Virus record (IMG/VR): IMGVR_UViG_3300042484_001840
Span: 32,001-96,000 of that record
From: a virus
Length of the DNA stretch: 64,000 nucleotides
Strand: one strand, 5' to 3'
The notes beneath the pieces are model-generated. The model made no database searches. It saw only the letters and a list, made by a program, of their open reading frames with translations, and was not told the DNA's origin. This document shows, one piece after another, positions 42,854 to 60,636 of the stretch. The number at the start of each line of letters is the position of its first letter. Positions within the stretch are counted from its first letter, which is position 1. Made by a program: the position numbers and the translations under genes.

Positions 42854-42934
42854 AAGTAATCCTTTGTTAGTAGTTGCGTGTGTAATCATTATAGCAGGGT
42901 TATGTAGATTACACAACCCTGCTACTTAGATTTA

Positions 42935-43633
42935 TCAGATTATTTGTTCTGCTCGCTCTTTTATTTTGACTAGAGCGTCGTCAAAGAAATTATAGAACTG
43001 TTCATAACCGTCATCGTCATCAAGGTCAATGTCTCCCGATGGTGATGGCTCTTCGCTTTCGTCAAACATGACATCGCCATCCATGACGACGACATAGCCG
43101 ACATAGCCCATACCCGTTTCGCTGTACGCAACACTAAATGTAAGCGTCGGATACATCTCGGAGATTTTGACGAGGAAACCATTTGAGAATGGACTCCAAG
43201 CAGTGTTGTAGAAAATCTCCAACTGTCCGATTGGGGTAGCAGTTCCTATGGGTGCGTTTGTAATTTCAGTATCGTAGTCGCCCCACTTAGTTCCCCAGTT
43301 ACTATTTGCCCAGTCATACCAGTTGCTGTAGCCAGTCTCGGCTAGAGACTTCTGCCCAGCCTCGTACTTTTCCACTGTGTCTTTGACTAGGTGGTCGTAC
43401 CATTCCTGAGTCATCTTGCCATCGTCCAGCATGACCTTCCAATTTGGGTGAGGTTCAGGGGATGTTGGGGTTGGTGACTGCGTGCCATCTAGAGCACTAG
43501 GCATTGGGACTAATGAGGCAATTTTGACAATTCGGTTGCCATCCTTGTCGGTAGATTGGATATCGTTCCAAAAACGAGATAGTAGGGCATTGTCACCCTT
43601 GACTGTCATAGTGTTATCGCAATGGTTAGGCAT
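42935..43633 (-). CDS. DUF1281/YubB ferredoxin-like family protein
   Basis: MPNHCDN...WYDWANSNWGTKW...NTAWSP...YSETG. Confidence 0.75.
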   Translation of the reverse strand: MPNHCDNTMTVKGDNALLSRFWNDIQSTDKDGNRIVKIASLVPMPSALDGTQSPTPTSPEPHPNWKVMLDDGKMTQEWYDHLVKDTVEKYEAGQKSLAETGYSNWYDWANSNWGTKWGDYDTEITNAPIGTATPIGQLEIFYNTAWSPFSNGFLVKISEMYPTLTFSVAYSETGMGYVGYVVVMDGDVMFDESEEPSPSGDIDLDDDDGYEQFYNFFDDALVKIKERAEQII

Positions 43634-43690
43634 TGTGTGTCCTTTCGGTAGTAGTTGATTGTATAAGTATACACTGTATTTTGTGTAATG

Positions 43691-43987
43691 TCAACACGCA
43701 GAGTTAATAAAATCCTGAGCGAGGACACTAAAATCTTGATTGTCGTGCTTGAAAAATCTTTCCCAATCGCTATCCCCACAAGCAAGCAATACAGCAAGCC
43801 CTGCTAAAGCGACGGGGAGTGAGTCATATGTTTCGGTGTAATCGTTAGCAACGAAGTCTGTCCACCAAAGCGAATACTTGCCATCGTTCTCGTGGAGTTC
43901 TATGCCGATATGGTACTTGTCCACGATGAATGAGTAGAGGGAAATACCGTTCTCATTGTCTGTGCTGAAATCTTTGAAAATCTTCAT
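43691..43987 (-). CDS. Hypothetical protein
   Basis: AGGAG RBS, coupled to the upstream gene. Confidence 0.6.
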   Translation of the reverse strand: MKIFKDFSTDNENGISLYSFIVDKYHIGIELHENDGKYSLWWTDFVANDYTETYDSLPVALAGLAVLLACGDSDWERFFKHDNQDFSVLAQDFINSAC

Positions 43988-44295
43988 TTGTAGTTTCTCC
44001 TTAGTGAGTTAGTACGGCTTTTTGCGTCCATTGCTTCTTTGCCCCACAGACTGTGGAGTGTGTAATGTTGGATAAGTAACCCAACAGCCTTCCAGATATC
44101 CTCTGCTGTCCATTCACTGTCGTCGCCCATGTCAGGGTTATCAAAGTCAATGTCGTAGATAAATCCATCTAAAGCAACTTCAGGAGTGCTGACAAGCGTG
44201 TAGTAGTGCTCGTCAATAATCTCAGCGAGTTCGTGAATTGCCCGACTTTCGTTGGCAAGTTCTTCCATCTCTGCGTGCTGTTCCCATGAAATCAT
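43984..44295 (-). CDS. Acidic hypothetical protein
   Basis: Has its own promoter cassette. Confidence 0.65.
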   Translation of the reverse strand: MISWEQHAEMEELANESRAIHELAEIIDEHYYTLVSTPEVALDGFIYDIDFDNPDMGDDSEWTAEDIWKAVGLLIQHYTLHSLWGKEAMDAKSRTNSLRRNYK

Positions 44296-44381
44296 TACTG
44301 TGTCCTTTCGTAGTAGGTATAGGTGTAAGTATACACGCTGAGAAGCAATAAAGCAACCCAGCGTGTAAACTTTTTAAAAAA

Positions 44382-44846
44382 TCACCAAGATGATGAGTAG
44401 TTAAACTCCCAGTCTTCGGGGAGTGTCAGCAACTTCCCAATAGCGTCGGCGGTGTATTGGACATTGCCCATATACCACTCGTCGTATTCTGTGCCCCCAA
44501 AGAAAAAGCCCTCTTGGACTGGCAGGAGTTCGCTAGCGAGAGAGTTGTCAGCGAGAACCTTTTTGCAAATGTCCACGAGTTCCGTTAGTTGGTCTCGTGA
44601 CACATAGGAAGTCTGACAGTTGTCTAAACCGTCTTGACAGTTCTTGACGAACCAGCCGTGAACGGCATTAGCCTTTCGCCAGTAGGCAACCTTAACTTCA
44701 ATAGAAGCAGATGGAAGTTCGTCGCTAACGAAATCGCCAATCTTGGAAAGTTCCATAAGTGACTGATAGAGAGCATTGCTCTCAGGTGTGCTCCACTTCG
44801 TTCCCGAAGCGTATTTGCGTGCGTATAAAAATTGGTCAAGTCCCAT
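44382..44846 (-). CDS. Conserved phage protein (MGLD...YWRKAN family)
   Basis: MGLDQFLY...YWRKANAVHGWFV...GFFFGGTEYDEWY...YSSSW; own cassette. Confidence 0.75.
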   Translation of the reverse strand: MGLDQFLYARKYASGTKWSTPESNALYQSLMELSKIGDFVSDELPSASIEVKVAYWRKANAVHGWFVKNCQDGLDNCQTSYVSRDQLTELVDICKKVLADNSLASELLPVQEGFFFGGTEYDEWYMGNVQYTADAIGKLLTLPEDWEFNYSSSW

Positions 44847-44928
44847 TGTTGTGTCCTTTGTTAGTAGTTGTGTGTGTAATCATTATACAGTATCTGTAGG
44901 GGTTTTGCAACCCCTACAGAAAGATTTA

Positions 44929-45240
44929 TCAGAGTGACCGAAAGTAATAGCCGTCTGTTTCCCAAAAGTCGCCACCTTGGAATAGGTCATGGGCATACTT
45001 GGCGAAATCAAAGTATCGCCAAACTCGCTCGTGAATGCCATCCATAAAGCAACTCTCATAAGCATGGAACTCTCCGAACTCTTTATGCGAGCCGAAGTAC
45101 CCATAATAGGAGTCGGTATAGTCACTGATTTCGCCCTCTGCGTCCTCGGCAGAAATATGGTAATTGAGACAAAACTCAGTGAATGAATTGACATCTAAAC
45201 CGTTGTCCTCGGCAATGCTTTCATAAGTAATGGTGTCCAT
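44929..45240 (-). CDS. ArdA-like antirestriction protein (short form)
   Basis: Acidic; YYGYFGSHKEFGE...RYFDFAKYAHDLF..GDFWETDGYYFR matches the ArdA C-terminal pattern. Confidence 0.65.
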   Translation of the reverse strand: MDTITYESIAEDNGLDVNSFTEFCLNYHISAEDAEGEISDYTDSYYGYFGSHKEFGEFHAYESCFMDGIHERVWRYFDFAKYAHDLFQGGDFWETDGYYFRSL

Positions 45241-45318
45241 AGTAATCCCTTCGTAGTGGTGTTAGATAAGTATAGCAGGTCTGTGTAAGGTTTACAACCT
45301 TATCATCAGATTTCTTTC

Positions 45319-45615
45319 TCAGAGCCGACCACCGTAGTCTCGCTCGTTGTAGTAGCGATTTTCCCACTGTGCTTGCTTTTCAGCATCAGCGATTTCGGTT
45401 TCCAACTCTTCAAAGATTTCCTTCATTGCTTCAATGACGAGTGAGTGGATATCGGCAACAGTGCCGTGGTTTTTAATTCCGATACCGACATTCTGTGCTT
45501 CTCGCACTTCGTCATACCAATTGAAAAGTGCTTGCCACTCTCCAATGTTGCGAGCGTTGTATTCGTCAGCAATAAGTTGCTTGATGACTTCCGTAAAGTT
45601 AGTGGTGGTTTCCAT
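45319..45615 (-). CDS. Hypothetical protein
   Basis: Start 45615 after the cassette; a second promoter copy lies at about 45730-45762. Confidence 0.65.
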   Translation of the reverse strand: METTTNFTEVIKQLIADEYNARNIGEWQALFNWYDEVREAQNVGIGIKNHGTVADIHSLVIEAMKEIFEELETEIADAEKQAQWENRYYNERDYGGRL

Positions 45616-45777
45616 AGTTGTCCTTTTCCGTAGTAGTGGCTTACCAGATAAGTATAGCAGATATGTGTAACAATTACAACATCTAAATAGATATTTATTA
45701 GATTTTTTTTTGCGCCGTAACCTATAGGACAAGTATAGCAGATGGGTGTAACAATTACAACCTATTTATAGATAAAG

Positions 45778-45810
45778 TTATCCACAAAGTTATCCACAGA
45801 CTTATTCACA
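45778..45810 (+). promoter_or_regulatory. Three DnaA boxes at 12-bp spacing
   Basis: TTATCCACA (45778), TTATCCACA (45790), TTATTCACA (45802). Confidence 0.75.
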
Positions 45811-45940
45811 GGCAAAAAATAGGGGGTCATCCGCCACCGTACGAAAAAGAGACACACAGTCCCGTACCCCAAATCGGGGAGCGGGGCTATCAACCTTCAT
45901 GACAAATTCTGTCAATACTTGCAAGCATTAGCCCCGCAAC

Positions 45941-45954
45941 CGAACTAATGTTCG
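45941..45954. promoter_or_regulatory. LexA (Gram-positive type SOS) box
   Basis: CGAAC-TAAT-GTTCG 4 nt before the ATG at 45959. Confidence 0.65.
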
Positions 45955-45958
45955 TAGC

Positions 45959-46324: not shown

Positions 46325-46608
46325 ACAAGATGAATGAGTCATACGCCGAGTGGCAGAGAGAGTTTAGGAAGTCACAACAGGTGAAGCCGAAGAGTGAGAA
46401 AGTGAAACCAAAAGGTTTCGTACTGTTTCTCGCAATGATCTTCTACTCGCTCATAGTGTCTGTGATTTTTTTCGTTGTCGTCACTCTTGCCCTAAGTATT
46501 GCAGGGTGGTCAGACTTCCTGTCTGCTCGTGAAGTGTTCGGTATATGTTTTGGCATCTCTTCACTCAGGGGACTTGACAGAGTTTTCTACGGTAGGAATC
46601 CTTTTTAG
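46321..46608 (+). CDS. Membrane protein
   Basis: Two hydrophobic segments. Confidence 0.55.
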   Translation: MNKMNESYAEWQREFRKSQQVKPKSEKVKPKGFVLFLAMIFYSLIVSVIFFVVVTLALSIAGWSDFLSAREVFGICFGISSLRGLDRVFYGRNPF

Positions 46609-46615
46609 ATATAGC

Positions 46616-48045: not shown

Positions 48046-48765
48046 TCAAGAAACTCCGTTCACTAAGATTGCGTCTAATACGGACTGATAGTGTTTTCCG
48101 AAAGTTAGGCGTGCCGCCTTCTCCACAGAAACTGTTTTGCGTAGAGTGTCAAACGCCATAAATGCTCGGATAGAGAAACGCCTATCCTTGTCAGCGTCAG
48201 CCGAAGCGGCCGCCGCTCCTCGCAAATCAGGCGAGAGCATTGTCAGAGCGTCAGGGTGAGGCGTGTTGATTCGCACAGCAACGGGAAAGCGGTCTTTGAG
48301 AGCCTGAGGCAACTCACGCATATCCTCAATGTTCGTGGTCATAAACACCGAGAAGCCTTTTTTCGGCTTCAAGATTCGTCCTGTCTCAGGATGTTCCCAA
48401 GAGGCAGATTCCTCACTGTCAAACATCGCAAGTAGTTGCGACATAACATCGCCTGACGCACGGTCAATTTCGTCAGCGACAACTCGTCCGCCGTTGATAC
48501 CGTCGCCTTGCCACGCCTTGATAACAGTGCCATCTTGCCATTTCCAAGTGCCATCGCCTGATGGCTTGAAGTGACCAGTAACATCGGCACTCGTCATATC
48601 CTCGTTACAGATAAGACGGTGAGCACCTGCCGAAACATTGCCAAATGTAAGACCAGCGAATGTTTTGCCCGTTCCTGGCGGTCCGAACAGAATTAGTTTG
48701 TTGATTCCTGAGTCAAGAATGTCGTTGACATCTTGCCAGCATTCGGGGAGATTAGTAGTAGTCAT
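48046..48765 (-). CDS. MoxR/CbbQ-type AAA+ ATPase
   Basis: GPPGTGKT, VVADEIDRA, MTTN, LPQALKDRF, FSIR; paired with the vWA gene. Confidence 0.88.
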   Translation of the reverse strand: MTTTNLPECWQDVNDILDSGINKLILFGPPGTGKTFAGLTFGNVSAGAHRLICNEDMTSADVTGHFKPSGDGTWKWQDGTVIKAWQGDGINGGRVVADEIDRASGDVMSQLLAMFDSEESASWEHPETGRILKPKKGFSVFMTTNIEDMRELPQALKDRFPVAVRINTPHPDALTMLSPDLRGAAAASADADKDRRFSIRAFMAFDTLRKTVSVEKAARLTFGKHYQSVLDAILVNGVS

Positions 48766-48874
48766 AGTTTGTCCTTTGCTAGTAGCGGGTTTTCCCGTGT
48801 TTGATAAGTATACACCCTGTGTGTAGAAATTGCAACTTTATTTCAGAAATTATTTGACATTTTTTTTAGAATGT

Positions 48875-48909: not shown

Positions 48910-49308
48910 TCAGGCGACCTGAGAGATATTGACTACATTCTCAGTGTCGTTGGCGATTTCCGTGACTCGTACTTGGTCGTACTTAGTGACGGTAGTAATC
49001 GCCTCAGCAATATCGCTGGGGATAACGCCCAACTCAACGGCGGACTTGAATTTCTTACCGTCCACTTCAAGTTTGGTAACTTGCTTGAGAACGATAGGCG
49101 AGACAAGTTCGGTCAATGCCTTCAGGTTGTACTTGGGTCGCTCACCATTGACGATGAGAACCTTTTGTCCGTCCACGACATTGAAGTTGAGTCCCTTTTC
49201 AGCGTAGGCAAGTTTCAAGTCTGCCTCTGCTTGGGCTTTAGCCTTTTCAGCATTTTCCAATGCTTGCTTGGCATTCAAGTAGTTGAGAGTGATTTGTGTG
49301 AGATTCAT
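48910..49308 (-). CDS. Hypothetical protein with N-terminal coiled coil
   Basis: Own cassette; YLNAKQALENAEKAKAQAEADLK. Confidence 0.7.
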   Translation of the reverse strand: MNLTQITLNYLNAKQALENAEKAKAQAEADLKLAYAEKGLNFNVVDGQKVLIVNGERPKYNLKALTELVSPIVLKQVTKLEVDGKKFKSAVELGVIPSDIAEAITTVTKYDQVRVTEIANDTENVVNISQVA

Positions 49309-49387
49309 AATTTGTCCCTTTCAGTAGTGGTGTGTATTCATTATACAGGTTGTGCGTAACAATTGCAACCTTATTTCTAAATTATTT

Positions 49388-49615
49388 TCAGAATTCGTAT
49401 TCGTCGCCTGTTGATACCCAACAGATTTCGCCATCTTGAAAACCTTGGCGGTAAAGTTTGCCAAGAACAACAAGTAAGCCGTTAGAGATACTCCCCAACT
49501 TGCTTGTGATGTATTCCTCGGCGGTAGCGTCGGTACTAAACAACTCGTAATTAGTGGCAATGTAATCGCCGTGCATTTCTCCATAAAGAACCGCTTGAAA
49601 GAAATTCGTACTCAT
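49388..49615 (-). CDS. Hypothetical protein
   Basis: Own cassette. Confidence 0.65.
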   Translation of the reverse strand: MSTNFFQAVLYGEMHGDYIATNYELFSTDATAEEYITSKLGSISNGLLVVLGKLYRQGFQDGEICWVSTGDEYEF

Positions 49616-49698
49616 ATTGTGTCCCTTCGTTAGTAATTGCTTGCGGAAATAAGTATATCAGGTGGGTGTATGAATTACAACATTATTACTTAGATTTA

Positions 49699-49764
49699 TC
49701 AGATATTTTTCAGAACCATAGATAATGTTCCGAGTAGGTATAGACCAACGAATAAGAGTCCCAT
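49699..49764 (-). CDS. 21-aa hydrophobic microprotein (not in ORF track)
   Basis: MGLLFVGLYLLGTLSMVLKNI directly after a full promoter/leader cassette (49765-49822). Confidence 0.55.
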   Translation of the reverse strand: MGLLFVGLYLLGTLSMVLKNI

Positions 49765-49947
49765 AGTAATCCTTCTGTAGTAGGTGAAATATAAGTATAC
49801 AGGTTGGGTGTAAGAATTACAACCTTATTTATGTTACAGAATGATTACAATAATTGTAACAGAAATGTTATATTAAAATGTTGTATTTGTTACACAGAAG
49901 TGCTATACTTATATTCGTAAGTTACTACTACCGAAAAGGACAAAACT

Positions 49948-50145
49948 ATGGAAGCGAAATGTTGCGCCGATAAGCCGATGCTAGAAGTTTATGGTTACGA
50001 GGGTTGTGCGGATTGTTACGATAAATGGTGCGAGGGCGAACTTATCGCCTATGAAGATTTACGCCGTGCAGAGTTCGCAAACTCTTGGGTGATTGGTGGC
50101 GGTTACGCCTCAGACGCTGATCTCGCTTACGAACAGTTTGCGTGA
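49948..50145 (+). CDS. Hypothetical Cys-rich protein
   Basis: Own cassette, divergent from 49764. Confidence 0.65.
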   Translation: MEAKCCADKPMLEVYGYEGCADCYDKWCEGELIAYEDLRRAEFANSWVIGGGYASDADLAYEQFA

Positions 50146-50298
50146 TGGCGAGTCCCACTGCTGAAAGGCGGTGGGACAACCACTTAGTCCCGCTTGGGCA
50201 GTCTCATCCGCCACCGTCATTCATTGGGAGCGCGCGTGCGGGGCTATCTCGGTATACCCCACCCCTAAAGCCCCGTATCCCCCAAAAATTTCTGGGGG

Positions 50299-50330
50299 TT
50301 ATCCACAGGCTGGGGATAACCTGTGGATAA
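50299..50330. promoter_or_regulatory. Three DnaA boxes (one with a mismatch)
   Basis: TTATCCACA 50299, TGGGGATAA 50311, TGTGGATAA 50322. Confidence 0.7.
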
Positions 50331-50340
50331 CTTTGACCCG

Positions 50341-50517
50341 TCAGCAAGCCCCCTCACAATACTCGCAAGTGGTCTCGTCAACTTCGTGACAGCCATTCCA
50401 GCCTTCGTCAACTTTGTTGTTGTCGGCGCAATACTGTATGCGACACCAGTCAGAACAGAAAACAATTCTGTCAACGATGTCGCCACTCTTATCTTCAATC
50501 AAAAGTAGGTGAGCCAT
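50341..50517 (-). CDS. 58-aa Cys-rich protein (not in ORF track)
   Basis: MAHLLLIEDKSGDIVDRIVFCSDWC...GWNGCHE...CEYCEGAC after a cassette. Confidence 0.7.
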   Translation of the reverse strand: MAHLLLIEDKSGDIVDRIVFCSDWCRIQYCADNNKVDEGWNGCHEVDETTCEYCEGAC

Positions 50518-50647
50518 TATTTTGTCCCTTCGGTAGTAGTGCCTTACCTTATCTATTATAGCAGGCGGGTGTAGAAATTACAACTCGATTTGTTAAATTT
50601 ATTTAGAACTTTGGGGGCGGACTTTCGCCCGCCCCCAACGCTCATGA

Positions 50648-50935
50648 TCAGGCTTCGCACTCGCAGTCGTAGTGGAGTTCTTCGCACCAACCGCAGTGGT
50701 CACGATCCCACTCTTCGTCTTCGTCTTCTTCGTCCTGAATGTCAAAAGACACCCAAGCCATGACGGTACGAAGCAAGTGGTCGTAATCGCCAGCAGTGGC
50801 GTTCTGAGTGAACTCAGCGATTACTTCCCGTGATACGCCGTGATTACGGAGCGCACCACAAACTCTTGCGATAATGCTGAACGCATTACCGTCCTGCCCG
50901 ACGAGCAGAACCGAAACTTCAGGATACTTAACCAT
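50648..50935 (-). CDS. Conserved phage protein
   Basis: LVGQDGNAFSIIARV...ATAGDYDHLL; own cassette; hairpin 50611-50638 follows. Confidence 0.75.
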   Translation of the reverse strand: MVKYPEVSVLLVGQDGNAFSIIARVCGALRNHGVSREVIAEFTQNATAGDYDHLLRTVMAWVSFDIQDEEDEDEEWDRDHCGWCEELHYDCECEA

Positions 50936-51108
50936 AATTTGTCCCTTCGTTAGTAGTTTTTCCTTACCTGATAAGTATAGCAGATAGGTGTAACAACTAC
51001 ACCATTGTAGAGCGTGTCATTTGTCACATAAGATTTATTCGTAAAAGTGTGTAAATGCTACACCCACCTGCTATAATATATATATCACCTACTACGAAAG
51101 GAAAAAAT

Positions 51109-51441
51109 ATGATTTGGAAAGCAAAAGCCTCCGACATTATTGACCACCTTGTTTACTCAGGGGCAGACACCTATGAGTGGTATCACGAACTCACCGAAAC
51201 CAAAGACGGACAAATTGTCTGTACGATGGAAACGGGCGAGTACGACGATGAGTCTGAACCGTTGACAGCGAGTGTTGCGTTCTCCCCCACTCACGCCTTG
51301 ACAGTCGCCAATGCGATTATCAAGGGACAGGGAGCGGGTTGGCGCACCGTTCAGTCAGCAGTCGCTAATGACGACTTTGACTCCGATGCCGCGGACATCG
51401 TTCTCCAGCACATCGTGCTGAGCGACTTGGTGTTCGGCTGA
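51109..51441 (+). CDS. Acidic hypothetical protein
   Basis: Start 51109 after a cassette; ends DAADIVLQHIVLSDLVFG. Confidence 0.7.
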   Translation: MIWKAKASDIIDHLVYSGADTYEWYHELTETKDGQIVCTMETGEYDDESEPLTASVAFSPTHALTVANAIIKGQGAGWRTVQSAVANDDFDSDAADIVLQHIVLSDLVFG

Positions 51442-51479: not shown

Positions 51480-51523
51480 TGTGGATAACCTTTTCCACAG
51501 CCTGTGGATAACCCTGTGGATAA
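51480..51523. promoter_or_regulatory. Four DnaA boxes
   Basis: TGTGGATAA 51480, TTTTCCACA 51491, TGTGGATAA 51503, TGTGGATAA 51515. Confidence 0.78.
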
Positions 51524-51638
51524 CTTTCCCGATAGCCCCGTATACAAAGTGCGGGTGCGGGACTGTCACGATAAATAGTCGTGGAAATTCTTGAATTGAA
51601 AAAACGGGAAGCGGGGCTAACAAACTAAATAGCAGGGG

Positions 51639-51806: not shown

Positions 51807-52195
51807 ACTGTCGCCCCTTCCTTGATCTTGGCTAGTTGTTCGGCACGAATTGCGTTTACTTCCTCGGCTGAGAATACCTTACCGAACACGCTCAACATGG
51901 TACGAATGTCGTCGTCCACGCCCGTAGTGTTACCTTCCTCGTCGTACCCTGCGATAACAGCAGGTCCGACAAGTCGGTAACCTTCGCCAGCCAAAGTAGA
52001 AGCGAACTCGTTTAAGGCGAAGTCAGAACGGAATAAACCTTCCTCGTTCAACCACAAGTCAAGACCGTTCACCAATTGAACGCTCTCAATGAGTCCCTGA
52101 ACGAGACTCTGGAGAAACTCCAAAGACTTTTGACCTTCGGGCTTCTGAACAATGTACGGCGAACCGTCTAAATCGTTGATGTAAATGACTTGCAT
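51803..52195 (-). CDS. DUF3846-like protein
   Basis: LEFLQSLVQGLIESV...LWLNEEG...N..AS...LVGPAVIAG.D.EG. Confidence 0.75.
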   Translation of the reverse strand: MQVIYINDLDGSPYIVQKPEGQKSLEFLQSLVQGLIESVQLVNGLDLWLNEEGLFRSDFALNEFASTLAGEGYRLVGPAVIAGYDEEGNTTGVDDDIRTMLSVFGKVFSAEEVNAIRAEQLAKIKEGATV

Positions 52196-52287
52196 AATTA
52201 GTCCCTTTCGTAGTAGTGTTTATATATTATAGCCTTGTGGGGCAGGAAAGTCAAATCCTGCCCCACAATTATTTCATTTCTTTAGGC

Positions 52288-52476
52288 TCAGACCGTGACC
52301 TTGCGTGCCTTGCGTCGCGCGCGGACATTGCGGATCTCTGCGCGAAGTGATGCGGTGAGTCCAGCCTTGATCCAAATGGCGGTTATCAAAGAAGCGTTGA
52401 TCATAACCAGCAAGCCTCTGATGACTTCCAAAGTGTAATCCGAGAGAGTGAAGTTGATAGTGTATTGAGCAATCAT
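52288..52476 (-). CDS. Small membrane protein
   Basis: Own cassette; TM plus basic tail. Confidence 0.6.
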   Translation of the reverse strand: MIAQYTINFTLSDYTLEVIRGLLVMINASLITAIWIKAGLTASLRAEIRNVRARRKARKVTV

Positions 52477-52630
52477 TTTGTGCCTTTCGTAGTAGGTATG
52501 AGATAAGTATAGCGACTTTGTGTAACTTTTACAACCTTCTAGTAAGTGTCATTTGTCACACTACTCAATGTTGTAATTTCTACACAGACTCGCTATAATA
52601 TACTTGTACACAACTACTAAAGGAGAAAAT

Positions 52631-52864
52631 ATGCTCAGCACCAAAATTGGAAATAGTGACTGGTACTTCGTTCTCAACAACGGAGCGACTCGCAAGTTCT
52701 CAGTTCAGTTTCTCGGCAGACGACGAGGAGACGACAAGCGAGACATCGTGACATTCCGTGAAGGTGCGCCACACTACGAGGCGTACACGACCGAGACGGG
52801 CAAAGCAATTCCGAAGTTTGTCGCAAAAGCAATTTGGGAAGCAATGGAAAAGTCCCCCGCCTGA
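52631..52864 (+). CDS. Hypothetical protein
   Basis: Start 52631 after a cassette. Confidence 0.65.
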   Translation: MLSTKIGNSDWYFVLNNGATRKFSVQFLGRRRGDDKRDIVTFREGAPHYEAYTTETGKAIPKFVAKAIWEAMEKSPA

Positions 52865-53508: not shown

Positions 53509-53736
53509 TCAGAGGTCTGGTAAGTAATCAAATTCTACGGTTGTCTCCCAAGAGATATCTTTCATTTCCCAACCGTAGTGGTAGCGAAGGTTCTTGGTTG
53601 CCATGTCAATGGCGACTTCTGTTAGTTGGTCATTATCCAAGTTGGTGAATGACGGCTCCTCTAAATCTATCTCAACAAAGTGAGTCAGAGAAAAGAAATC
53701 TCCAACAAAGGTGACATTACAACTTGCGTGCTTCAT
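53509..53736 (-). CDS. Hypothetical protein
   Basis: ACTAC..CGAAAGGA leader. Confidence 0.6.
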   Translation of the reverse strand: MKHASCNVTFVGDFFSLTHFVEIDLEEPSFTNLDNDQLTEVAIDMATKNLRYHYGWEMKDISWETTVEFDYLPDL

Positions 53737-53779
53737 AGTAATCCTTTCGGTTGTAGTTGGTATGGGGTGAAGTTGGGGG

Positions 53780-54295
53780 TCAGACCCCCAACTCCTCGGC
53801 TAGTTGCTTCTGAGTCTTACCTAGGTGCTTCTTAGCGCACACAGGGCCGACTCCGACACGATGACCGTAGCCATCCTTGTCGTCTAGTTCGGCACTACAG
53901 AACAAACAAACGCCCGTACGCACGCCGTACTCCATAGCGACGAGTGCGGTGACCTTTTCGGTTGGCGAGAGCAGGGAGATCGCTCCACGCTCGTAAATCC
54001 AACCGCTTTCGCCACGACGCATTGCGTAGAGATTGCCACCTTCGGATTGCTTCACCTTGTAGATCAAGTGACCGACGAGGTAGAAACCGACTTCGGTAAC
54101 CTTCTCGGCAGGCTTGACTTCCGTAGCAGGCTTAGCCATAACCTTGGCGAACATTGAACGGATAGCCTTTTCTTGCGCTTCGCTCAATGCGCCCTTGTTC
54201 TCAAAAGTCTTAGCGATTGAGATTGCGAACGCACTCCACTGTTGGGCTTTCGCCCATTCAATGACGGAAGTAATCGGGGTCAATGTGGTAGTCAT
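53780..54295 (-). CDS. DUF6011-like Zn-finger protein
   Basis: GVCLFCSAELDD...GVGPVCAKK; own cassette. Confidence 0.75.
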   Translation of the reverse strand: MTTTLTPITSVIEWAKAQQWSAFAISIAKTFENKGALSEAQEKAIRSMFAKVMAKPATEVKPAEKVTEVGFYLVGHLIYKVKQSEGGNLYAMRRGESGWIYERGAISLLSPTEKVTALVAMEYGVRTGVCLFCSAELDDKDGYGHRVGVGPVCAKKHLGKTQKQLAEELGV

Positions 54296-54370
54296 AATTT
54301 CTCCTTAGTAGTAGTGGTGATAAATACAAGTATACAGCAGGGGTGTATGAATTACAACCCCTGCCTCGGC

Positions 54371-54493
54371 TCACCAAGTTGGTGGCCGACCGATGAAGTT
54401 GCCATCGGAGTCGTAGCAACCATTGTCGGGGTCAAGGTAGCCCTGAGCGTCGTAGCGGTCAGGATCGTTGTAGTCGTCATGATCGTTATTCAT
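54371..54493 (-). CDS. 40-aa Asp-rich microprotein (not in ORF track)
   Basis: MNNDHDDYNDPDRYDAQGYLDPDNGCYDSDGNFIGRPPTW after a full cassette. Confidence 0.65.
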   Translation of the reverse strand: MNNDHDDYNDPDRYDAQGYLDPDNGCYDSDGNFIGRPPTW

Positions 54494-54575
54494 AATTTCC
54501 CCTTTGTAGTAGTTGGTATTTAATAAGTATACAGGCTTCGTGTAAGAATTACAACCTTATTCGCAAGATTATTGG

Positions 54576-54591
54576 TGTGACATTGGTCACA
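54576..54591. promoter_or_regulatory. CRP/GlxR-type site
   Basis: Perfect TGTGA-CATTGG-TCACA; related sites at 51013, 52545, 55269, 56857, 59460, 60612. Confidence 0.55.
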
Positions 54592-54816
54592 GGCCAGTCG
54601 TCTGGGGGCTTGGGGGTCGTCGGCCGGGTTTGGGGAGTTTGGCCACCCTGCTTCGGAGGCATTTAGTCCCGCTTGGTTATGGCGAGTTTCCCGTGTTTGT
54701 CGCAAGCCCCGCAGGTGAAAACGGCAAAGCGGAGATGCGGGGCTAGTGGTGGTTTTCGGATTAGCAATTATATGTAAGGGGTGGGGCAGGGTTTCCCCCG
54801 CCCCACCATGCCCCTG

Positions 54817-55185
54817 TCACCACACAGGAGTAAATCGTCGCTCGTCGGCGTTGTAAGCGTGTTCGTAGTGAGTGCCTTTATTCTCAAGGTTACGAACTTC
54901 AATTTCTTGAACGAGACGCTTGGCAATTGCGCTGAAGTTCAAGCCATCAGTGCCTGCCACCATTCGCTTGCGTCGGTGGGCGATAACCGAAGCGGTAACC
55001 AATTCCGAACGCTTGAGTGCGTTCTCGTCGGCGTACACCTTCGTTACTGCGTCGGCTACTTGTTGGTAATCCCAACAGGCGTTGTACATTCCGCCGAGCA
55101 GTGTAATTAAATCAAATCGTGACGGAAGTGAATAGTAATCGCCCTGTAATTTGGTGGGCTTATTCTTATGCCATTTGGTAAGCAT
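54817..55185 (-). CDS. Hypothetical protein
   Basis: Own cassette. Confidence 0.65.
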   Translation of the reverse strand: MLTKWHKNKPTKLQGDYYSLPSRFDLITLLGGMYNACWDYQQVADAVTKVYADENALKRSELVTASVIAHRRKRMVAGTDGLNFSAIAKRLVQEIEVRNLENKGTHYEHAYNADERRFTPVW

Positions 55186-55358
55186 ATTTTTTCCTTTCGT
55201 AGTAGTGGTTATGAATATAAGTATACACCTTCTGTGTAGGAATTACAACTTCTAGCGTCAAATAATTGTGTGACAAATGACACTAGGCAGAACTGTGTAA
55301 ATGCTACACCCACCTGCTATACTTGTATATGTAAGGAAAACCTACCGAAAGGAATACT

Positions 55359-55541
55359 ATGAATAACGCAGAATTGTTCGTGTGGAATGAAATTGAAGAG
55401 GGCTTCATTCGTGAGTATGGAATTGAAGACGGTATACGAGTGTGCGATTACGCACAGCGTGTATATTACAGGAGTGGCAAGATGACCCTAGCCGTCAAGG
55501 CGGCAACGGAATGGGCTAGCAGAATGAGAATGGGAGTCTGA
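55359..55541 (+). CDS. Small protein, paralog of 57375-57554
   Basis: FVWNEIEEGFIREYGIEDGIR...AV..A.EW. Confidence 0.7.
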   Translation: MNNAELFVWNEIEEGFIREYGIEDGIRVCDYAQRVYYRSGKMTLAVKAATEWASRMRMGV

Positions 55542-55542
55542 T

Positions 55543-55743: not shown

Positions 55744-55808
55744 CTTGACATTCCTACACCTAGGGTGTATAATATACCTATAACGAAAACTAACCGAAAG
55801 GACTACTA

Positions 55809-55979
55809 ATGGCTACCGTTCCCAACTACGAAATTGAACGACTAAATGAGTTTGTCGCAGAAATTGAAATTGCGATTAAGGAACACGGTTACGCATATGC
55901 GTACGGTGCGACAATGTTCAACTTGAAGTCTTTGCTCAACCAAATTACCCGTGAGCCAGCACCTTGGGAGAACCTATGA
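55809..55979 (+). CDS. 56-aa hypothetical protein (not in ORF track)
   Basis: MATVPNYEIERLNEF... after a consensus TTGACA-17-TATAAT cassette. Confidence 0.7.
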   Translation: MATVPNYEIERLNEFVAEIEIAIKEHGYAYAYGATMFNLKSLLNQITREPAPWENL

Positions 55980-56098: not shown

Positions 56099-56364
56099 GT
56101 CTCGCCAACTACTCCGCTAGCCCCGCCCTCATCTTGAGCGTGCGGGGCTTTTGCTTTCCATAAACCAATTGGACATTCTGCATTGGACAGGGTTGTCTTC
56201 AATGGCATGAAGCACCCGCAAATTCCGCAAGTGCTTAGACGCTTACTGAAGTGGTCACAGCCCCGACAGATGTCTAAGCGTTCTTTTCGTTCCAAGCGGG
56301 TCAAGCGGGGGATTGACGGGCGTAGTAAATCCGTGAATTGCGCAGGAGATTGTTCTTCGTTCAT
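56092..56364 (-). CDS. DUF6171-like Cys-rich protein
   Basis: RLDICRGC...TCGICGCFMPLKT...CPIGLW. Confidence 0.7.
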   Translation of the reverse strand: MNEEQSPAQFTDLLRPSIPRLTRLERKERLDICRGCDHFSKRLSTCGICGCFMPLKTTLSNAECPIGLWKAKAPHAQDEGGASGVVGETQ

Positions 56365-56434
56365 ACGCTAATTGTATCCACGGAAGTATACCTAAGGGGT
56401 ATGACATAGTTGCCCATGCCATACCCCTTGATTA

Positions 56435-56788
56435 TCACAATTGGATAAACCTACCCAATTTGAATATCTGCTGGATAAGTGCGCCCCATGAGCAGTAGTA
56501 GTGCATGACTACCAATTTCTTGCTCGCTGGGTAATACTTGCCCGTACCCCAAGTATCTGTCTTAGTGGGGTTCTCGCCTTGATTAACAGCATACGGTTGA
56601 TTGAGTGCCACTCCGCAACAGGAACAGGGTAGTGAACCAAATTCGCCATCAAGGGCTAAGTGGATCATCTGCATGTTGCGCTTACGCTTCATGCCTTGGC
56701 GGAGTGCTTCAAGCGTGTCTGCTTCGGCGTATGCCTTAGCACCGTGTTCCCACGGTTTACGGTAAGCGGGTTTAGTAATGGTAGTCAT
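56435..56788 (-). CDS. Hypothetical Zn-binding protein
   Basis: Start 56788 after a cassette; CSCCG...HYYC. Confidence 0.65.
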   Translation of the reverse strand: MTTITKPAYRKPWEHGAKAYAEADTLEALRQGMKRKRNMQMIHLALDGEFGSLPCSCCGVALNQPYAVNQGENPTKTDTWGTGKYYPASKKLVVMHYYCSWGALIQQIFKLGRFIQL

Positions 56789-57187
56789 TAGTAGTCCTCT
56801 CAGTAGTTGTAAATATAAGTATACAGGAGAAGTGTAACAATTACAACATTGCATAGTATGACAATTGTCACTATCGGTATTGCGCCTAATTACTTATGAG
56901 TATATTATACACGATAGGTGAATGAATGTCAAGTATTTACACAAAATAATTTATTATATTTAGTTTTATAAATAATATCTATAATATATAAATGTCTTCC
57001 GCCACCGTCAATAGTAGAAGCGCTTAGCCCCGTTCATTTTTTGGCAAATTTATATCATTTCTACCAATTTCATATCAGTTCGGGTGCGGGGCTGTCAGCC
57101 TTCTGAAATACTTTGTAATACAAGGTGATACAGGGAATTACTGCGTGCGGGGCTAATAGTTTTCTTTCCCGCCAATCAAGTCGCCCC

Positions 57188-57292
57188 TCATTCCATCAAA
57201 TCTTTAAAATCATCCCAAAACAGAGCGACAATAATTCCCGCAACCATTCCAAGCGCCCCAAGTCCAATCAAAAAGTCGTTTAGCAATTCCAT
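57188..57292 (-). CDS. 34-aa single-TM microprotein
   Basis: MELLNDFLIGLGALGMVAGIIVALFWDDFKDLME after a cassette. Confidence 0.65.
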   Translation of the reverse strand: MELLNDFLIGLGALGMVAGIIVALFWDDFKDLME

Positions 57293-57374
57293 AATTTCTC
57301 CTTTGTAGTAGTTGGTTACATAGACAATTATACAGGAGGGGTGTGGCAGAGTTTCCCCTGCCACCCCCAAGCGA

Positions 57375-57554
57375 TCAGTAGACCGCTCGCTCTCGGCGTT
57401 CCCACTCAATCGCATTGGCGACTGCCTTGGCAATCCCCTTGGCGGTTTGGCTATGAGTACGACTGGCTCGTTCACCAATTCGCAACCCTCGCTCTAACCC
57501 GTACTGGCGGATTAGGTTTTCGTGGATCTCATCCCATAAGAATTTGGTATTCAT
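57375..57554 (-). CDS. Small protein, paralog of 55359-55541
   Basis: MNTKFLWDEIHENLIRQYGLERGLR...AVANAIEW. Confidence 0.7.
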   Translation of the reverse strand: MNTKFLWDEIHENLIRQYGLERGLRIGERASRTHSQTAKGIAKAVANAIEWERRERAVY

Positions 57555-57642
57555 ATTTTCTCCCTTAGTAGTGGTGACTTCCTTACATATATAAGTATAC
57601 ACAAGGGGTGTGGCAGAGTTCCCTCCGCCACGCCCCCAGCGA

Positions 57643-58008
57643 TCAGTAATCCTCATCCTCATCGTCCTCGTCCTCTTGGCTGAGAAACTCCTCATCGTCC
57701 ATCCATTCGCCCTGCCCGATGAGACTCACGAAACCTGCGTTGGGGTTCTCGTGGTTGGTTGTGACTGCGTTGATGAACTTCAGACCACACGACTCGTCCC
57801 ACCAAACTTTGAGCGTGGTGAGCATTTCCTCAGAAGTGCCCTCAAAAGTGCGGTCATCGCAGTGAACGCCGTTATAGTTCTCACGGAACCAGCCCGCCTG
57901 CTCCTCGTCCATTGCGAGGTAGATTTTGTGGCAACCGTCCCAAGCGATAAGGAGAGCGCCCTCAAGAGCGTCCTCAACTGGGTCAAATAAATTGTCTAAG
58001 GTTTTCAT
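57643..58008 (-). CDS. Acidic conserved phage protein
   Basis: IAWDGCHKIYLAMD...WWDESCGLKFI; own cassette. Confidence 0.7.
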   Translation of the reverse strand: MKTLDNLFDPVEDALEGALLIAWDGCHKIYLAMDEEQAGWFRENYNGVHCDDRTFEGTSEEMLTTLKVWWDESCGLKFINAVTTNHENPNAGFVSLIGQGEWMDDEEFLSQEDEDDEDEDY

Positions 58009-58098
58009 AGTTTGTCCCTTTCAGTAGTTGTTGCTTACTTAGTAATTATACACAAGGGGTGTGGCAGAGTTTCCTCCGCCACCCCCTGACGCTTGAGA

Positions 58099-58314
58099 TC
58101 AGATCTCAGCCTCCCACATACGGCAGATCTCCTTGGTGATATGGAGACCCTGAACAAGTGCCAAGCCAATGGCTCGCTTTAGTTCGTTGGGCGTTGCCAA
58201 GGGGAGGTAGTTGTCAATGTCCTCCCAAGCCTTGAGACCAGCAAGGATTTCCTCGTAGGTCTTGCTGGCATAAGCCTTGTCATTACTAGTTGGGAACTTG
58301 GTTTCGGTAGTCAT
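58099..58314 (-). CDS. Hypothetical protein
   Basis: Own cassette. Confidence 0.65.
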   Translation of the reverse strand: MTTETKFPTSNDKAYASKTYEEILAGLKAWEDIDNYLPLATPNELKRAIGLALVQGLHITKEICRMWEAEI

Positions 58315-58549
58315 AATTTGTCCTCTCGGTAGTGGTTTTCCTTACCTAGTAAGTATACACCTTGGGTGTAGCACTTACACCATTATTCGTGTTACAGAAT
58401 GGTTACAGATTTATGACGGAAATGTAATGGAGAGCCAAAATGCCGATATGGGCAATGTGTCACCATTACACGCTAGAACGCCCCCTAAGCGCCTGACCCC
58501 CCTCTCCGCCCCTAGCACCCAATCCTGAGCCTGAAACGGCTGAGAGACG

Positions 58550-59147
58550 ATTTCCACAGATTTATACACAGCCTCTGAGCAGGGGAAATGTGGCAAAACC
58601 CCAGCGTGAGGGCACTTTTTGCATAACCCCTGCTAGTGGGCTTACACACGGTGGTTATCCACAGAAGTGACCACTTACCACCAGATTTCACCAGTAGTTA
58701 TCCACAGGGGTGTGTATAAAGTTGGGGATAAGGTTATCCACAGGATATCCACAGGGTGTGGATAAAGTAGTTGTACTGTGCAAGTAAGTTATCCACAGGG
58801 GGTGTGGATAAAGGTGTGGATAAAGTTTTCCACAGGGTGTGGATAAACCTGTGGAAAAGATAGTTGTAGTCTACAAGTAAGTTTTCCACAGGATGGGGAT
58901 AAAGTTGTGGATAAAGTTATCAACAGGGCTGTGGATAAAGTTGTGGATAACTTTTTGCTCTGTAAAAAATTCTCTTCCGCCACCGTCAAAGTTTTAGAAA
59001 CGAGGGGGCGGGGCTAGTCCCCTACTAACAAGAATTGAAAAATCTGAACTTATAAAAAAAAGCATTAGCCCCGTTTGTTTTTTCAAGAAGCATTAGCCCC
59101 GTTTGTTTTTTGAGTTTTCCACAGGTTTTTCCACAGGCTGTGGATAA
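58550..59147. repeat. Large DnaA-box array (oriC-like or DnaA-titration locus)
   Basis: 16 perfect TT(A/T)TNCACA boxes plus 5 one-mismatch boxes in 58550-58950, and 3 more at 59115-59147; 11-14 bp spacing within blocks. Confidence 0.85.
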
Positions 59148-59179
59148 GGGGGTAGGGTTTGACCCCCACCCCCACTCAA

Positions 59180-59377
59180 TCACCAAGGGCACTCGTTGTG
59201 TCCTTTTCTCATTATCCATCGCGATTTCATTTCGCTGACGAATCGGTAGGCAACTTTGTGCGGACTCCATAAGTAAGCGAGTCGCCTGATGCCTGTCATG
59301 TCCTCAGCCTCGTCCAATTCGCAATTGGCGGGCATGTAAAGCGAACCGCTCCACTCTAGTCCTTTGAGCCATTTCAT
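59180..59377 (-). CDS. Hypothetical protein
   Basis: Start 59377 after a cassette. Confidence 0.65.
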   Translation of the reverse strand: MKWLKGLEWSGSLYMPANCELDEAEDMTGIRRLAYLWSPHKVAYRFVSEMKSRWIMRKGHNECPW

Positions 59378-59555
59378 ATTTTCTCCTTCTAGTAGTTCCT
59401 TACATATACAAGTATAGCAGACTTGTGTAACCATTACAACATTTATCAACAAATATCTTTGTGACAAAAGACACGCCGTACAATGGTGTAAACTCTACAC
59501 CCTCATGCTATACTTATGGAGTACGGAAAACCTACTACTAAACAAGGGAGACAGT

Positions 59556-59834
59556 ATGAAGTTCATGACCGAAACGCTAGTGACAGACACGCTCTGCTAC
59601 GAAGTAATTGCCGAGACAGCCAAGACGCTGACAATCAGGTCAATGGCACGAGGCGAGCAGGTGTACACCGATGGCGCACCATTGCCAGTAATCGGACTCC
59701 GAGCGATTTCTGATCCGAACGGAGACACCAAAGTGGTGAGACTCCGTAAAGACGGAACTTACCGCAAGGCTCAGGGATACAACCCCCTGCGGTTCACCGA
59801 GACTCCGATCTTCTACACGGACTACAAGTACTGA
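59556..59834 (+). CDS. Hypothetical protein
   Basis: Start 59556 after a cassette; YEVIAETAKTLTIR. Confidence 0.7.
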   Translation: MKFMTETLVTDTLCYEVIAETAKTLTIRSMARGEQVYTDGAPLPVIGLRAISDPNGDTKVVRLRKDGTYRKAQGYNPLRFTETPIFYTDYKY

Positions 59835-60008
59835 GAGATGGGCGGGGGGCGAAAGCCCCCCCCCCCCCAGTTATCCACAGGGCTGTGGACAACTTTGCGC
59901 GGAAAATCCGTGCGGGGCTATGGGCTTCCCGACGCGCCCGCTAGCCCCGTTGCTTCAAAATCTGGAGACTCACGGTATGGGCAGAACCCCGCAGGGCTTA
60001 GCGCCCCC

Positions 60009-60296
60009 TCAATCGGGGACGCTTGCCCATGCTTCGGCTTCGGTACTGAACTCGCCAAACTCGGAGACGGTACGAACTTCGGTCAGGCTTACGGCTTGAC
60101 GGACAGTAAAGCGACGCTCGCCGTCCCAAGCGAAGCCGTTAGGGTCTTGCTCAGAAGTGACAAAGTAGCCATCGCCGTAGATATCTCCGTGAACCCTTGA
60201 CGCAAACCAGCGCATAGTGCTATCGGAGAAAAAGTGGTAGCCAGCGTCTTTACTAGCCTCCACGAACTCACTTAGTGTCATGGTTGAAATACTCAT
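60009..60296 (-). CDS. Conserved phage protein
   Basis: AGYHFFSDSTMRWFASRV...YFVTSE...RRFTVR...FGEFST; own cassette. Confidence 0.75.
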   Translation of the reverse strand: MSISTMTLSEFVEASKDAGYHFFSDSTMRWFASRVHGDIYGDGYFVTSEQDPNGFAWDGERRFTVRQAVSLTEVRTVSEFGEFSTEAEAWASVPD

Positions 60297-60373
60297 AGTT
60301 ATCTCCTTAGTAGTTGATGGATAAATTATACCGAGGGGGTGTGGCTCAGTTCCCCAAGCCACACCGAAGCCCC

Positions 60374-60541
60374 TCAGAACCGAGGTAGTTGGCTTAGGAC
60401 ATAATCCTCGGCACGGGTGATGTACTTAGCCGTAACAGCGCCTCGTGCTTTTCTATAAGCGAGGTCATAGATACGGTCAGCAACTTCAAAGCCATGCTTA
60501 CGGATAAGAGCCTCGTAAAGTTCATTTTCTGAGAATGTCAT
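60374..60541 (-). CDS. Small protein, distant paralog of 55359/57554 family
   Basis: NELYEALIRKHGFEVADRI...A.R. Confidence 0.6.
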   Translation of the reverse strand: MTFSENELYEALIRKHGFEVADRIYDLAYRKARGAVTAKYITRAEDYVLSQLPRF

Positions 60542-60636
60542 TATTTTCTCCTTAGTAGTGGTGACAGATATAAGTATACACCCGCCGAGTGTAGAAACTA
60601 CAACCATACGGTGTGTCTCTTGTCACACTACCTAAC

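Follow-up and report, generated by a model that had tools for sequence, protein, structure and literature searches.

A probable promoter-early-stem-loop-like array of individually promoted accessory genes in a large phage with actinophage-like virion genes

Promoter-early stem-loops (PeSLs) are known from the T4-type phages RB49/phi1, T4/PST and KVP40/nt-1 (Arbiol et al. 2010, PMC2839356; Comeau et al. 2014, PMC4122927), where crossovers fall between the -10 box and the ATG (PMC2839356). In the literature checked so far, only T4-like phages that infect Gram-negative hosts have been described as carrying cassettes of this promoter-terminator type that also serve as recombination seams. Here we describe a locus of comparable build in a 64,000-bp window, bases 32,001–96,000 of one 145,042-bp virus contig (IMG/VR record IMGVR_UViG_3300042484_001840; G+C 44%). 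Between 42.85 and 60.6 kb of this window, to which all coordinates below refer unless otherwise indicated, ~35 copies of a promoter-leader module serve ~40 small genes, mostly ORFans and mainly on the - strand; an initial annotation had counted about 30 cassettes, a fair estimate. The modules form a repeat with selection on its separate blocks, their hairpins covary at the RNA level, and the differences from a near relative are cassette-wise indels and mosaicism. We consider it likely that the locus is a PeSL-like array, that is, a set of insulated, individually promoted and probably early accessory genes whose regulatory plugs double as recombination seams.

The likeness to PeSLs begins with the order of the parts: upstream stop codon, AT-rich tract, sigma-70-like -35 and -10 boxes separated by 17 nt, Shine-Dalgarno (SD) sequence and ATG. 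The stem-loop of a PeSL, of GGGG...CCCC type, lies between or over the boxes and serves as a terminator or attenuator; in the array a strong stem at the promoter is seen in 13 of the ~35 modules. Both kinds of element are packed in a hyperplastic region of small ORFans and have a lineage-specific consensus, and in both, indels and replacements between ~95% identical phages lie at the elements, with crossovers between the -10 and the ATG. The array differs in that a strong stem-loop is present in only ~1/3 of its modules and several modules lose the -35 altogether, and it adds an invariant TACAC that forms a dyad with the -35 and a conserved, clade-wide ACUAC leader word. PeSLs also form excised mini-circles, through recombination between neighbouring elements. 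In addition, the window phage is not T4-like, its capsid and portal being nearest to those of Brevibacterium and Gordonia phages; the array is therefore an analogue of PeSLs and not a member of them by descent. The initial annotation was apt in naming T4-type PeSLs as analogues (PMC2839356, PMC4122927); the start-associated sequences (SAS) of Cluster K mycobacteriophages, which it also named, resemble the array leader in position only (PMC3203893).

The left 42 kb of the window is a + strand virion module with genes for portal (matching phrog_2662), protease and major capsid protein (matching phrog_10). Among isolates, the best matches of the capsid and portal proteins are in Brevibacterium phage Cantare and several Gordonia phages, at 40–50% identity, and the host is probably actinobacterial. 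The array separates this module from a helicase module, in which an SNF2-type helicase gene begins at 60,859 on the + strand; no tRNAs were found in the window. The two ends of the contig (contig bases 1–11341 and 133702–145042) are one 11.3-kb sequence with 42 mismatches, 41 of them within the first kb, and are explained either by a terminal repeat of that length or by overlapping ends in the assembly of a circularly permuted genome; removal of the repeated end leaves a unique length of ~133.7 kb. All close comparisons are with one near relative and thus with a single genome pair: a 129-kb IMG/VR contig (loci L003 and L007 in our numbering of related loci) that is collinear with the window and 92–97% (~95%) identical to it. 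Megablast of the array against INPHARED gave no match to any isolate, and two cassette proteins used as queries for a third close genome returned only the near relative and 53–63% homologues in unrelated contexts.

A standard module consists of an AT-rich stretch, the promoter TTGTAA-N4-TACAC-N9-TATACT, a leader that places the ATG 20–41 nt from the -10, and the ATG itself. The initial annotation had reported a repeated promoter containing a palindrome, and the counts agree. With one mismatch allowed, TTGYAA-N17-TATAMT has 21 matches in the window against 1.34 expected, a number reached by none of 100 shuffles, and 21 of the 24 strict promoter matches in the whole 145-kb contig fall at 44.9–59.5 kb. 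A weight matrix made from the strict matches finds 23 window copies with exactly 17 nt between the boxes, and its consensus is an AT-rich tract followed by G-TTGTAA-N4-TACAC-N9-TATACT-TAT. The palindrome, TGTA-N5-TACAC, occurs 25 times in the genome (~1.6 expected), each time inside a promoter and in one fixed register. Promoter, leader and ATG together reach a density of 11.3 per 10 kb in the array, compared with 0.2 in the structural half and 0–2.3 in distant relatives, and 50 kb of Cantare yield 0. Scans of IMG/VR and JGI metagenome contigs with the exact pattern found single chance matches only (3 and 27 loci, one each), and the weight matrix found no copy in 30 related loci except in the near relative; as far as these collections reach, since they may not include records very close to the window, the promoter is therefore lineage-specific. 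Just 5' of several modules (42928, 44922, 49692 and 63958), and part of their AT-rich tract, is TCTGATAAATCT, with 5 matches against 0.5 expected.

Conservation within the promoter is block-wise. In 21 orthologous promoter pairs from the window and the near relative, the -35, TACAC and -10 blocks show 0/126, 0/105 and 0/126 substitutions (0/357 in all), and the two spacers show 23/273. This is the pattern of a working bipartite promoter, and it also shows TACAC to be functional and not a leftover of duplication; on this comparison the hexamers are under purifying selection, and TACAC is selected as strongly as they are.

What might TACAC do? Coordinated on/off control through TGTA-N5-TACA, as the initial annotation proposed, is plausible, and it is possible, at somewhat short of an even chance, that TGTA-N5-TACA(C) is the operator of a dimeric phage or host DNA-binding protein that switches more than 20 promoters together. 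The constraint on TACAC equals that on the hexamers, its distance from the -35 is a constant 4 nt, and the half-sites are spaced one helical turn apart; the -35 is kept at the non-consensus TTGTAA instead of TTGACA, and five promoters give up its first T for G, which yields a perfect GTGTA-N5-TACAC dyad. On the other hand, the dyad is found only inside promoters and so is indistinguishable from a promoter-recognition element, its inner symmetry is weak (T precedes TACA in just 13 of 23 copies), and no helix-turn-helix (HTH) regulator was found among 30 array open reading frames (ORFs). We know of no operator that fits the spacing of the dyad among Rex, cre/CcpA, TnrA/GlnR, NtcA, NrdR, BldD and GntR-type sites. 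A model for an operator of this sort is provided by the Cluster A stoperators (L5 gp71 sites; cited in PMC3203893), in which dozens of copies of one short site across the non-structural genes answer to one global regulator; stoperators differ in being asymmetric 13-mers that lie between genes and block elongation, whereas the dyad lies inside each promoter.

A second kind of promoter is also present: TTGACA/TATAAT-type consensus promoters stand at 56932, 55745, 52254 and 43694 alongside at least 20 TTGTAA/TACAC copies. The coexistence of the two flavours would be explained if the few perfect TTGACA-17-TATAAT promoters were the true early ones and the TTGTAA/TACAC promoters a later class in which a phage activator reads TACAC, much as T4 MotA reads a box at -30, and YACAC does occur ~9 nt 5' of the -10 in some promoters of distant relatives (L012/L028, L029, L005, L009). 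We regard this as quite unlikely, since the class retains the TTG of the -35, the optimal 17-bp spacing, a tract resembling an upstream promoter (UP) element and often TGn before the -10, and scores 9–10 of 12 for sigma-70 unaided; moreover, two of the TTGACA promoters also carry TACAC in the same register. Apart from these elements, GTGTCA-TTT-GTCAC, a direct repeat of TGTCA, is found at 51014, 52546, 55270, 59461 and 60613 (variants at 54577 and 56858); it sits between the -35 boxes in every divergent promoter pair and may be a site for a regulator shared by both promoters.

When the 34 cassettes are aligned on the start codon, 32 show an ACTAC-type word 9–16 nt ahead of the ATG, where chance would give 0.02 per site. 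An A-rich AAGGA or GGAG follows, giving the leader consensus ACTAC(TAC)-N0-4-AAGGA, and an SD sequence with ATG forms the 3' end of the module in 34 of 34. The distance from the -10 to the ATG is variable, whereas that of the ACTAC word is tied to the SD and ATG; thus the word belongs to the translation-initiation region of a 5' untranslated region (UTR) of ~15–35 nt and not to the promoter. A CTAC-plus-SD leader recurs in relatives at 38–53% protein identity that do not have the array promoter. We also considered leader copies as trans-acting antisense or decoy elements and rejected this, as strict leader matches all precede an ORF, bar three unrelated sites.

This leader is what recalls the SAS and extended SAS (ESAS) of Cluster K mycobacteriophages (Pope et al. 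2011, PMC3203893): in both cases a short asymmetric word that includes or abuts the SD lies a few nt before the ATG of non-structural genes of unrelated families, in one orientation relative to the gene, and about half of the SAS sites have an upstream inverted repeat (PMC3203893). The SAS, however, is a 13-bp GGGATAGGAGCCC 3–7 bp before the start (PMC3203893), compared with ACTAC(TAC) plus GAAAGGA in the array; it is not part of a promoter unit; and the ESAS arms lack RNA covariation (PMC3203893), whereas the array hairpins covary. No evidence was seen for the initial annotation's suggestion that the repeat may also soak up host RNA polymerase. A stronger form of this idea would make the array chiefly a non-coding sponge by which host RNA polymerase is titrated, with the small ORFs incidental. 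Some 35 strong-looking promoters within 18 kb would suit such a sponge, but we find it very unlikely, given that every module finishes with an SD and ATG in good position and an open frame behind them, that the leaders are selected for translation, and that the array ORFs are 95–100% conserved in the near relative, some of them with homologues in other phages.

Strong stems lie over or replace the -35 in 13 of the ~35 modules, about a third. In 11 of 32 modules the stem-loop has a minimum free energy (MFE) of -21 to -32 kcal/mol, which places it among the top 0.5% of 46-mers from the genome, and the 3' arm of the hairpin ends 0–6 nt upstream of the -10. Five hairpins over the -35, at 42892–42924, 44332–44367, 44893–44920, 52235–52268 and 54337–54364 (MFE -21 to -26.5 kcal/mol), had been located to within ~2 nt by the initial annotation. 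The four that it described as replacing the -35, near 57340, 57605, 58055 and 60335, are indeed present (~57338–57368, 57600–57641, 58050–58092 and 60334–60373), and it had missed two more, at 54780–54807 and ~56394–56429; a stem of ~12 bp thus replaces the -35 in six window modules, and further copies occur in the near relative. In an 11-copy alignment of this family, whose GNRA loops are GAAA, GGAA or GCAA, 97.7% of the cells are paired and compensatory double changes are seen at 6 of the 12 pairs, values reached by none of 500 shuffles. G-U is the commonest pair at two positions and occurs on the sense strand only, and the sense RNA is more stable than the antisense in 20 of 21 hairpins. 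The covariation, the GNRA loops and the sense-only G-U pairs indicate that structure is selected in RNA, in the direction of transcription, and the position 5' of the next gene's -10 assigns each hairpin to the 3' end of the upstream message. The hairpins thus appear to act in RNA on the upstream transcript and not as operators over the -35, most likely as terminators, attenuators or 3'-end protectors of the upstream gene. Comparison of hairpins and leaders with Rfam 15 gave two chance-level matches only (E ~0.5, far under the gathering score). The loop word GGAAC was considered as an ECF-type or weak -35 and rejected by inspection, for at 18-bp spacing it agrees with TTGACA at only 2 of 6 positions, and the -10 does not resemble that of an ECF promoter.

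Inverted repeats at fixed positions beside gene starts could also be read as DNA-level structures, either promoters for a phage RNA polymerase, as in N4 early transcription, or attC-like sites of the integron type. We give this hardly any credence: sense-only G-U pairs and GNRA loops point to RNA, and the hairpin lies ~30 nt 5' of the predicted start beside a sigma-70 -10. Integron cassettes, furthermore, are promoterless ORFs with attC near a tyrosine integrase that has attI and Pc, whereas the window cassettes each have a promoter, and neither integrase nor recombinase was found among the 30 array ORFs.

Alignment with the near relative shows seven structural differences, six within the array and one beyond it, and all seven are whole-cassette indels or ORF replacements. 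Within the array the junctions fall in the leader stretch from -10 to ATG, at a -35 or at a hairpin, 8 of 9 of them in or at the edge of a module, in support of the initial annotation's proposal that the repeat provides recombination points for gene gain and loss. At the first seam (52279..52288) a complete extra cassette of 500 bp, comprising a hairpin promoter, a leader and an ORF of 139 aa, is present in the near relative; it lies after the stop codon of the gene upstream and before the next module, at that module's AT-rich edge. At the second (54359–54497) an ORF is replaced, with junctions at the SD/ATG and the next -35, and at the third (54756/54761) the near relative has a leader and 58-aa ORF where the window has only an orphan hairpin and -10. 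At the fourth (57602–58001) the leader, the ORF and the upstream half of the next promoter are swapped as one, with junctions at the -10 and in the leader, so that one and the same downstream gene is preceded by a hairpin promoter in the window phage and by another promoter upstream half in the near relative. The fifth (58329–58373) is a 237-bp indel, in which the near relative has an ORF and hairpin promoter inside the leader of ATG 58314, and the crossover lies inside an ACTAC word common to two leaders. At the sixth (59176–59377) an ORF is replaced between SD and 3' hairpin, and at the seventh, beyond the array (63946/63957), one more self-contained cassette, its leader of the type seen in the array, is present in the near relative.

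The ORFs specific to the near relative have no homologue anywhere in the window phage genome; they therefore represent gains or losses and not moves, and translocation of cassettes was rejected. Identity is also mosaic cassette by cassette, ranging from 78 to 100%: single divergent cassettes at 78–85% stand between neighbours at 97–100%, with 49391–49615 at 78% between 99% flanks and 50651–50935 at 82%. Of the recombination events proposed initially, gain and loss are borne out, as is gene replacement; inversion fares poorly, since none separates the two genomes. Its sole hint is a trio of paralogues on both strands (one member opposite) behind three different promoter types, which hints at past duplication, inversion and promoter swapping.

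Several points weigh against regarding the modules as insulating plugs and seams. Intergenic seams are expected anyway, since only such events leave viable genes; 9 junctions from one genome pair are too few to separate a recombination hot spot from the only tolerated place; and seam 1 has no flanking homology. The hairpins have no clean U-tract, only the U/A-rich -10 region after them, a terminator scan flagged only the hairpin at 52235–52268 and that on the opposite strand, and insulation cannot be general, since ~2/3 of modules lack a strong hairpin. Promoter and terminator activity, promoter strength, early timing and the mechanism of recombination are what we infer. In actinobacteria, intrinsic terminators without U-tracts have been reported.

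If the modules were ordinary promoters, junctions would fall in them only because intergenic DNA tolerates indels, and the modules do make up about half of the intergenic DNA in an array that is ~68% coding. This explanation has some weight but is unlikely in our judgment. At seam 5 the crossover is clean and falls in a word common to two leaders; in seams 2, 4 and 6 the swapped unit extends from a leader or SD as far as the following -10, -35 or hairpin and is thus bounded by conserved patches; and the same junction positions have been shown experimentally for PeSL mini-circles (PMC2839356). In addition, dispersed hairpin-promoter-leader copies of ~85 nt are mutually 82–90% identical, which is enough for phage recombination systems. 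The case for recombination seams rests on seams 2, 4, 5 and 6.

The PeSL-like reading that we prefer can be put as follows. The region would be a hyperplastic accessory-gene block of a ~134-kb phage in which nearly every small gene sits on its own standard plug, made up of an AT-rich UP-like tract, a putative host sigma-70/sigma-A-type promoter (TTGTAA-N4-TACAC-N9-TATACT), a short unstructured leader with ACUAC(UAC) directly 5' of an extended SD sequence (GAAAGGA), and the ATG. In ~1/3 of modules a GC-rich RNA hairpin just past the previous stop would limit read-through and protect the upstream 3' end, and by terminating or attenuating read-through it would insulate each cassette transcriptionally; hairpin modules would then depend on the -10 alone. 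Dozens of modules of 60–90 nt that share identical patches of 10–20 nt would then act as seams, at which homologous or microhomology recombination could delete, insert or replace single ORFs and leave the expression of their neighbours intact. More speculatively, and with considerable doubt, the array may be a two-layer platform, in which the dyad is the operator of one regulator that times the accessory set and ACUAC is the handle by which another factor, a regulator acting after transcription or a nuclease, takes hold; were that so, any gene recombining into a module would fall under both controls automatically.

Nearly all array ORFs are ORFans, most of them without Pfam or PHROG function and with no homologue in relatives at 50–80% core identity. 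The annotated products include a 103-aa ArdA-like anti-restriction protein (ORF 44932–45240, - strand; Pfam PF07275 at 7.7e-7, PHROG 2059), DUF3846, DUF1281_C and a few PHROGs without assigned function. Two hydrophobic micropeptides on the - strand, of 21 aa (49698–49763) and 34 aa (57191–57292), each have a full promoter-leader module. Early, host-takeover timing is plausible, as it fits strong sigma-70-type promoters, small ORFans and the ArdA-like gene. The host-takeover module of Bacillus phage SPO1, reportedly described by Stewart and co-workers in 1998, is said to hold 24 small genes in ~12 operons with strong early promoters and ribosome sites; it presumably resembles the array as a crowded set of tiny early genes, rich in strong promoters of host type, in terminators and in strong SDs, within a large phage of a Gram-positive host, and differs in lying in the terminal redundancy. 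To our knowledge no standardised leader word or promoter dyad has been described in SPO1 and no role as recombination seams has been proposed.

Four genes are clade-wide: those for an AAA ATPase and its 449-aa partner, 48913–49308 and the helicase. Most cassette ORFs are found only in the near relative, and a few occur sporadically in distant contigs in other contexts. In L009, a 53% relative, the same core genes lie ~3.4 kb apart, compared with ~12 kb in the window phage. Distant relatives have repeated promoter flavours of their own (L005, L009) or palindromes (L010), and several have the CTAC-plus-SD leader; TGTCACAC...TGTCATACT promoter-like units are found at L005:1000–6300 and more than 12 CTAATGATTAG palindromes at L010:300–8500. 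The adjacent region of L001, an 80% relative, is ordinary operonic DNA, and in Cantare small genes are packed on one strand with short gaps and 50 kb contain no promoter-leader-ATG match. Since the array promoter is confined to the lineage and the leader is clade-wide, the dense array represents a lineage-specific expansion on a clade-wide leader habit.

The individual modules, given from left to right and on the - strand unless otherwise stated, are as follows. At 42851–42924 the 12-bp stem over the -35 is followed by TATAAT, a ACTACTAA leader and ATG 42853 (151 aa). A TTGACA-17-TATACT module with a ACTACTAC leader (43631–43694) precedes ATG 43633 (232 aa, DUF1281_C), and the next gene, 43987, is operonic, as are 53492, 55543 and 59838, none of which has its own promoter. 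Two hairpin modules follow: at 44293–44367 the hairpin runs into TATACT ahead of leader and ATG 44295, and at 44844–44921 it encloses TTGCAA, with TATAAT, leader and ATG 44846 behind. Standard modules serve the ArdA-like gene (45238–45297, ATG 45240) and ATG 45615 (45613–45679), the latter with a second, gene-less promoter copy 81 nt upstream at 45732–45760. A standard module with TTGCAA (48763–48835) heads the clade-wide operon of AAA ATPase and 449-aa partner (48765 to 46695), and one with TTGCAA, TACGC and TATAAT (49306–49368) precedes ATG 49308. Further standard modules lie at 49613–49680 (ATG 49615, the cassette 78% identical to that of the near relative), 49761–49822 (driving the 21-aa micro-ORF, 49763–49698), 49881–49950 (+ strand, ATG 49948) and 50515–50583 (ATG 50517). 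The divergent pair at 50933–51111 joins a GTGTAG-type promoter (-, ATG 50935) to a GTGTAA-type one (+, ATG 51109), with GTGTCA-TTT-GTCAC at 51014–51027.

To the right of these, the module at 52193–52268 has a 13-bp stem with TTGACT in the loop, then TATAAT, leader and ATG 52195 (DUF3846), and a divergent standard pair (52474–52633; ATG 52476, -, and ATG 52631, +) has GTGTCA-TTT-GTCAC at 52546–52559. At 53734–53792 a hairpin (53772–53792) and ACTAC leader precede ATG 53736, and no -10 was found there; this hairpin is of GC type, and its loop holds the stop codon of gene 53780–54295, the product of which has an HTH-like C terminus (...TQKQLAEELGV) without a recognition helix. That gene's own standard module lies in a stem (54293–54364, ATG 54295), and another standard module (54491–54554) precedes ATG 54493 (40 aa), where the near relative has an unrelated ORF. 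The orphan GNRA hairpin with TATAAT of seam 3 (54767–54807) has no gene behind it. The divergent pair at 55183–55361 comprises a standard promoter (-, ATG 55185) and a GTGTAA-type one (+, ATG 55359, two-gene operon), with GTGTCA-TTT-GTCAC at 55270–55283, and a consensus TTGACA-N4-TACAC-N8-TATAAT module on the + strand (55745–55811) precedes ATG 55809.

Of the remaining modules, that at 56362–56429 has a GNRA hairpin, TATACT and a short leader without ACTAC before ATG 56364. A standard module at 56786–57011 (ATG 56788) has three more consensus-like promoters upstream in its AT-rich tract (56904–56932, 56953–56981 and 56983–57011). GNRA hairpins replace the -35 at 57290–57368 (TATAAT, leader, ATG 57292 of the 34-aa hydrophobic peptide), 57552–57641 (TATACT, leader, ATG 57554, the gene with a different promoter upstream half in the near relative), 58006–58092 (TATAAT, leader, ATG 58008) and 60294–60373 (TATAAT, leader, ATG 60296); the 121-aa ORF at ATG 58008 is absent from the near relative and has a 56% homologue in L021. 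Among these lie a GTGTAA-type module (58312–58380, ATG 58314) and a divergent pair (59375–59558) of a standard promoter (-, ATG 59377, its ORF replaced in the near relative) and a GTGTAA-type one (+, ATG 59556, two-gene operon). The last module, TTGTAG-N4-TACAC-N10-TATACT (60539–60603, ATG 60541), has GTGTCT-CTT-GTCAC and a LexA-like box cluster upstream; the cluster (60637–60772) consists of six CGAAC-N4-GTTCG (LexA-type) boxes between this promoter and the helicase gene.

Other repeats accompany the array. DnaA-box-like nonamers (TTATCCACA / TTTTCCACA) are dense and in both orientations in gene-free gaps, with clusters at 58549–59160, 45764–45809, 50297–50332 and 51489–51537. The 17-nt TTGACGGTGGCGGAAGA has 5 copies (0 expected) on the - strand, at 40958, 50204, 52927, 56995 and 58973, often near the DnaA-box gaps, and recurs 5–6 times in L009; it may be a second, clade-wide class of promoter or binding site. 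TAGCCCCGC has 12 window sites (40238 to 63874) against 0.22 expected, mainly in non-coding spots beside cassettes.

The array suggests that a large phage with actinophage-like virion genes arrived independently at the solution known from PeSLs, and it supports the idea of standardised expression plugs as a general means by which phages sample new accessory genes; it carries a concept centred on T4 over to an actinophage-like lineage and is not a new principle. Its ORFans, the ArdA-like gene included, likely act on the host. It also offers ~35 natural promoter/UTR variants with built-in comparative data, and in the TACAC block and the ACUAC leader word, two small and directly testable puzzles.

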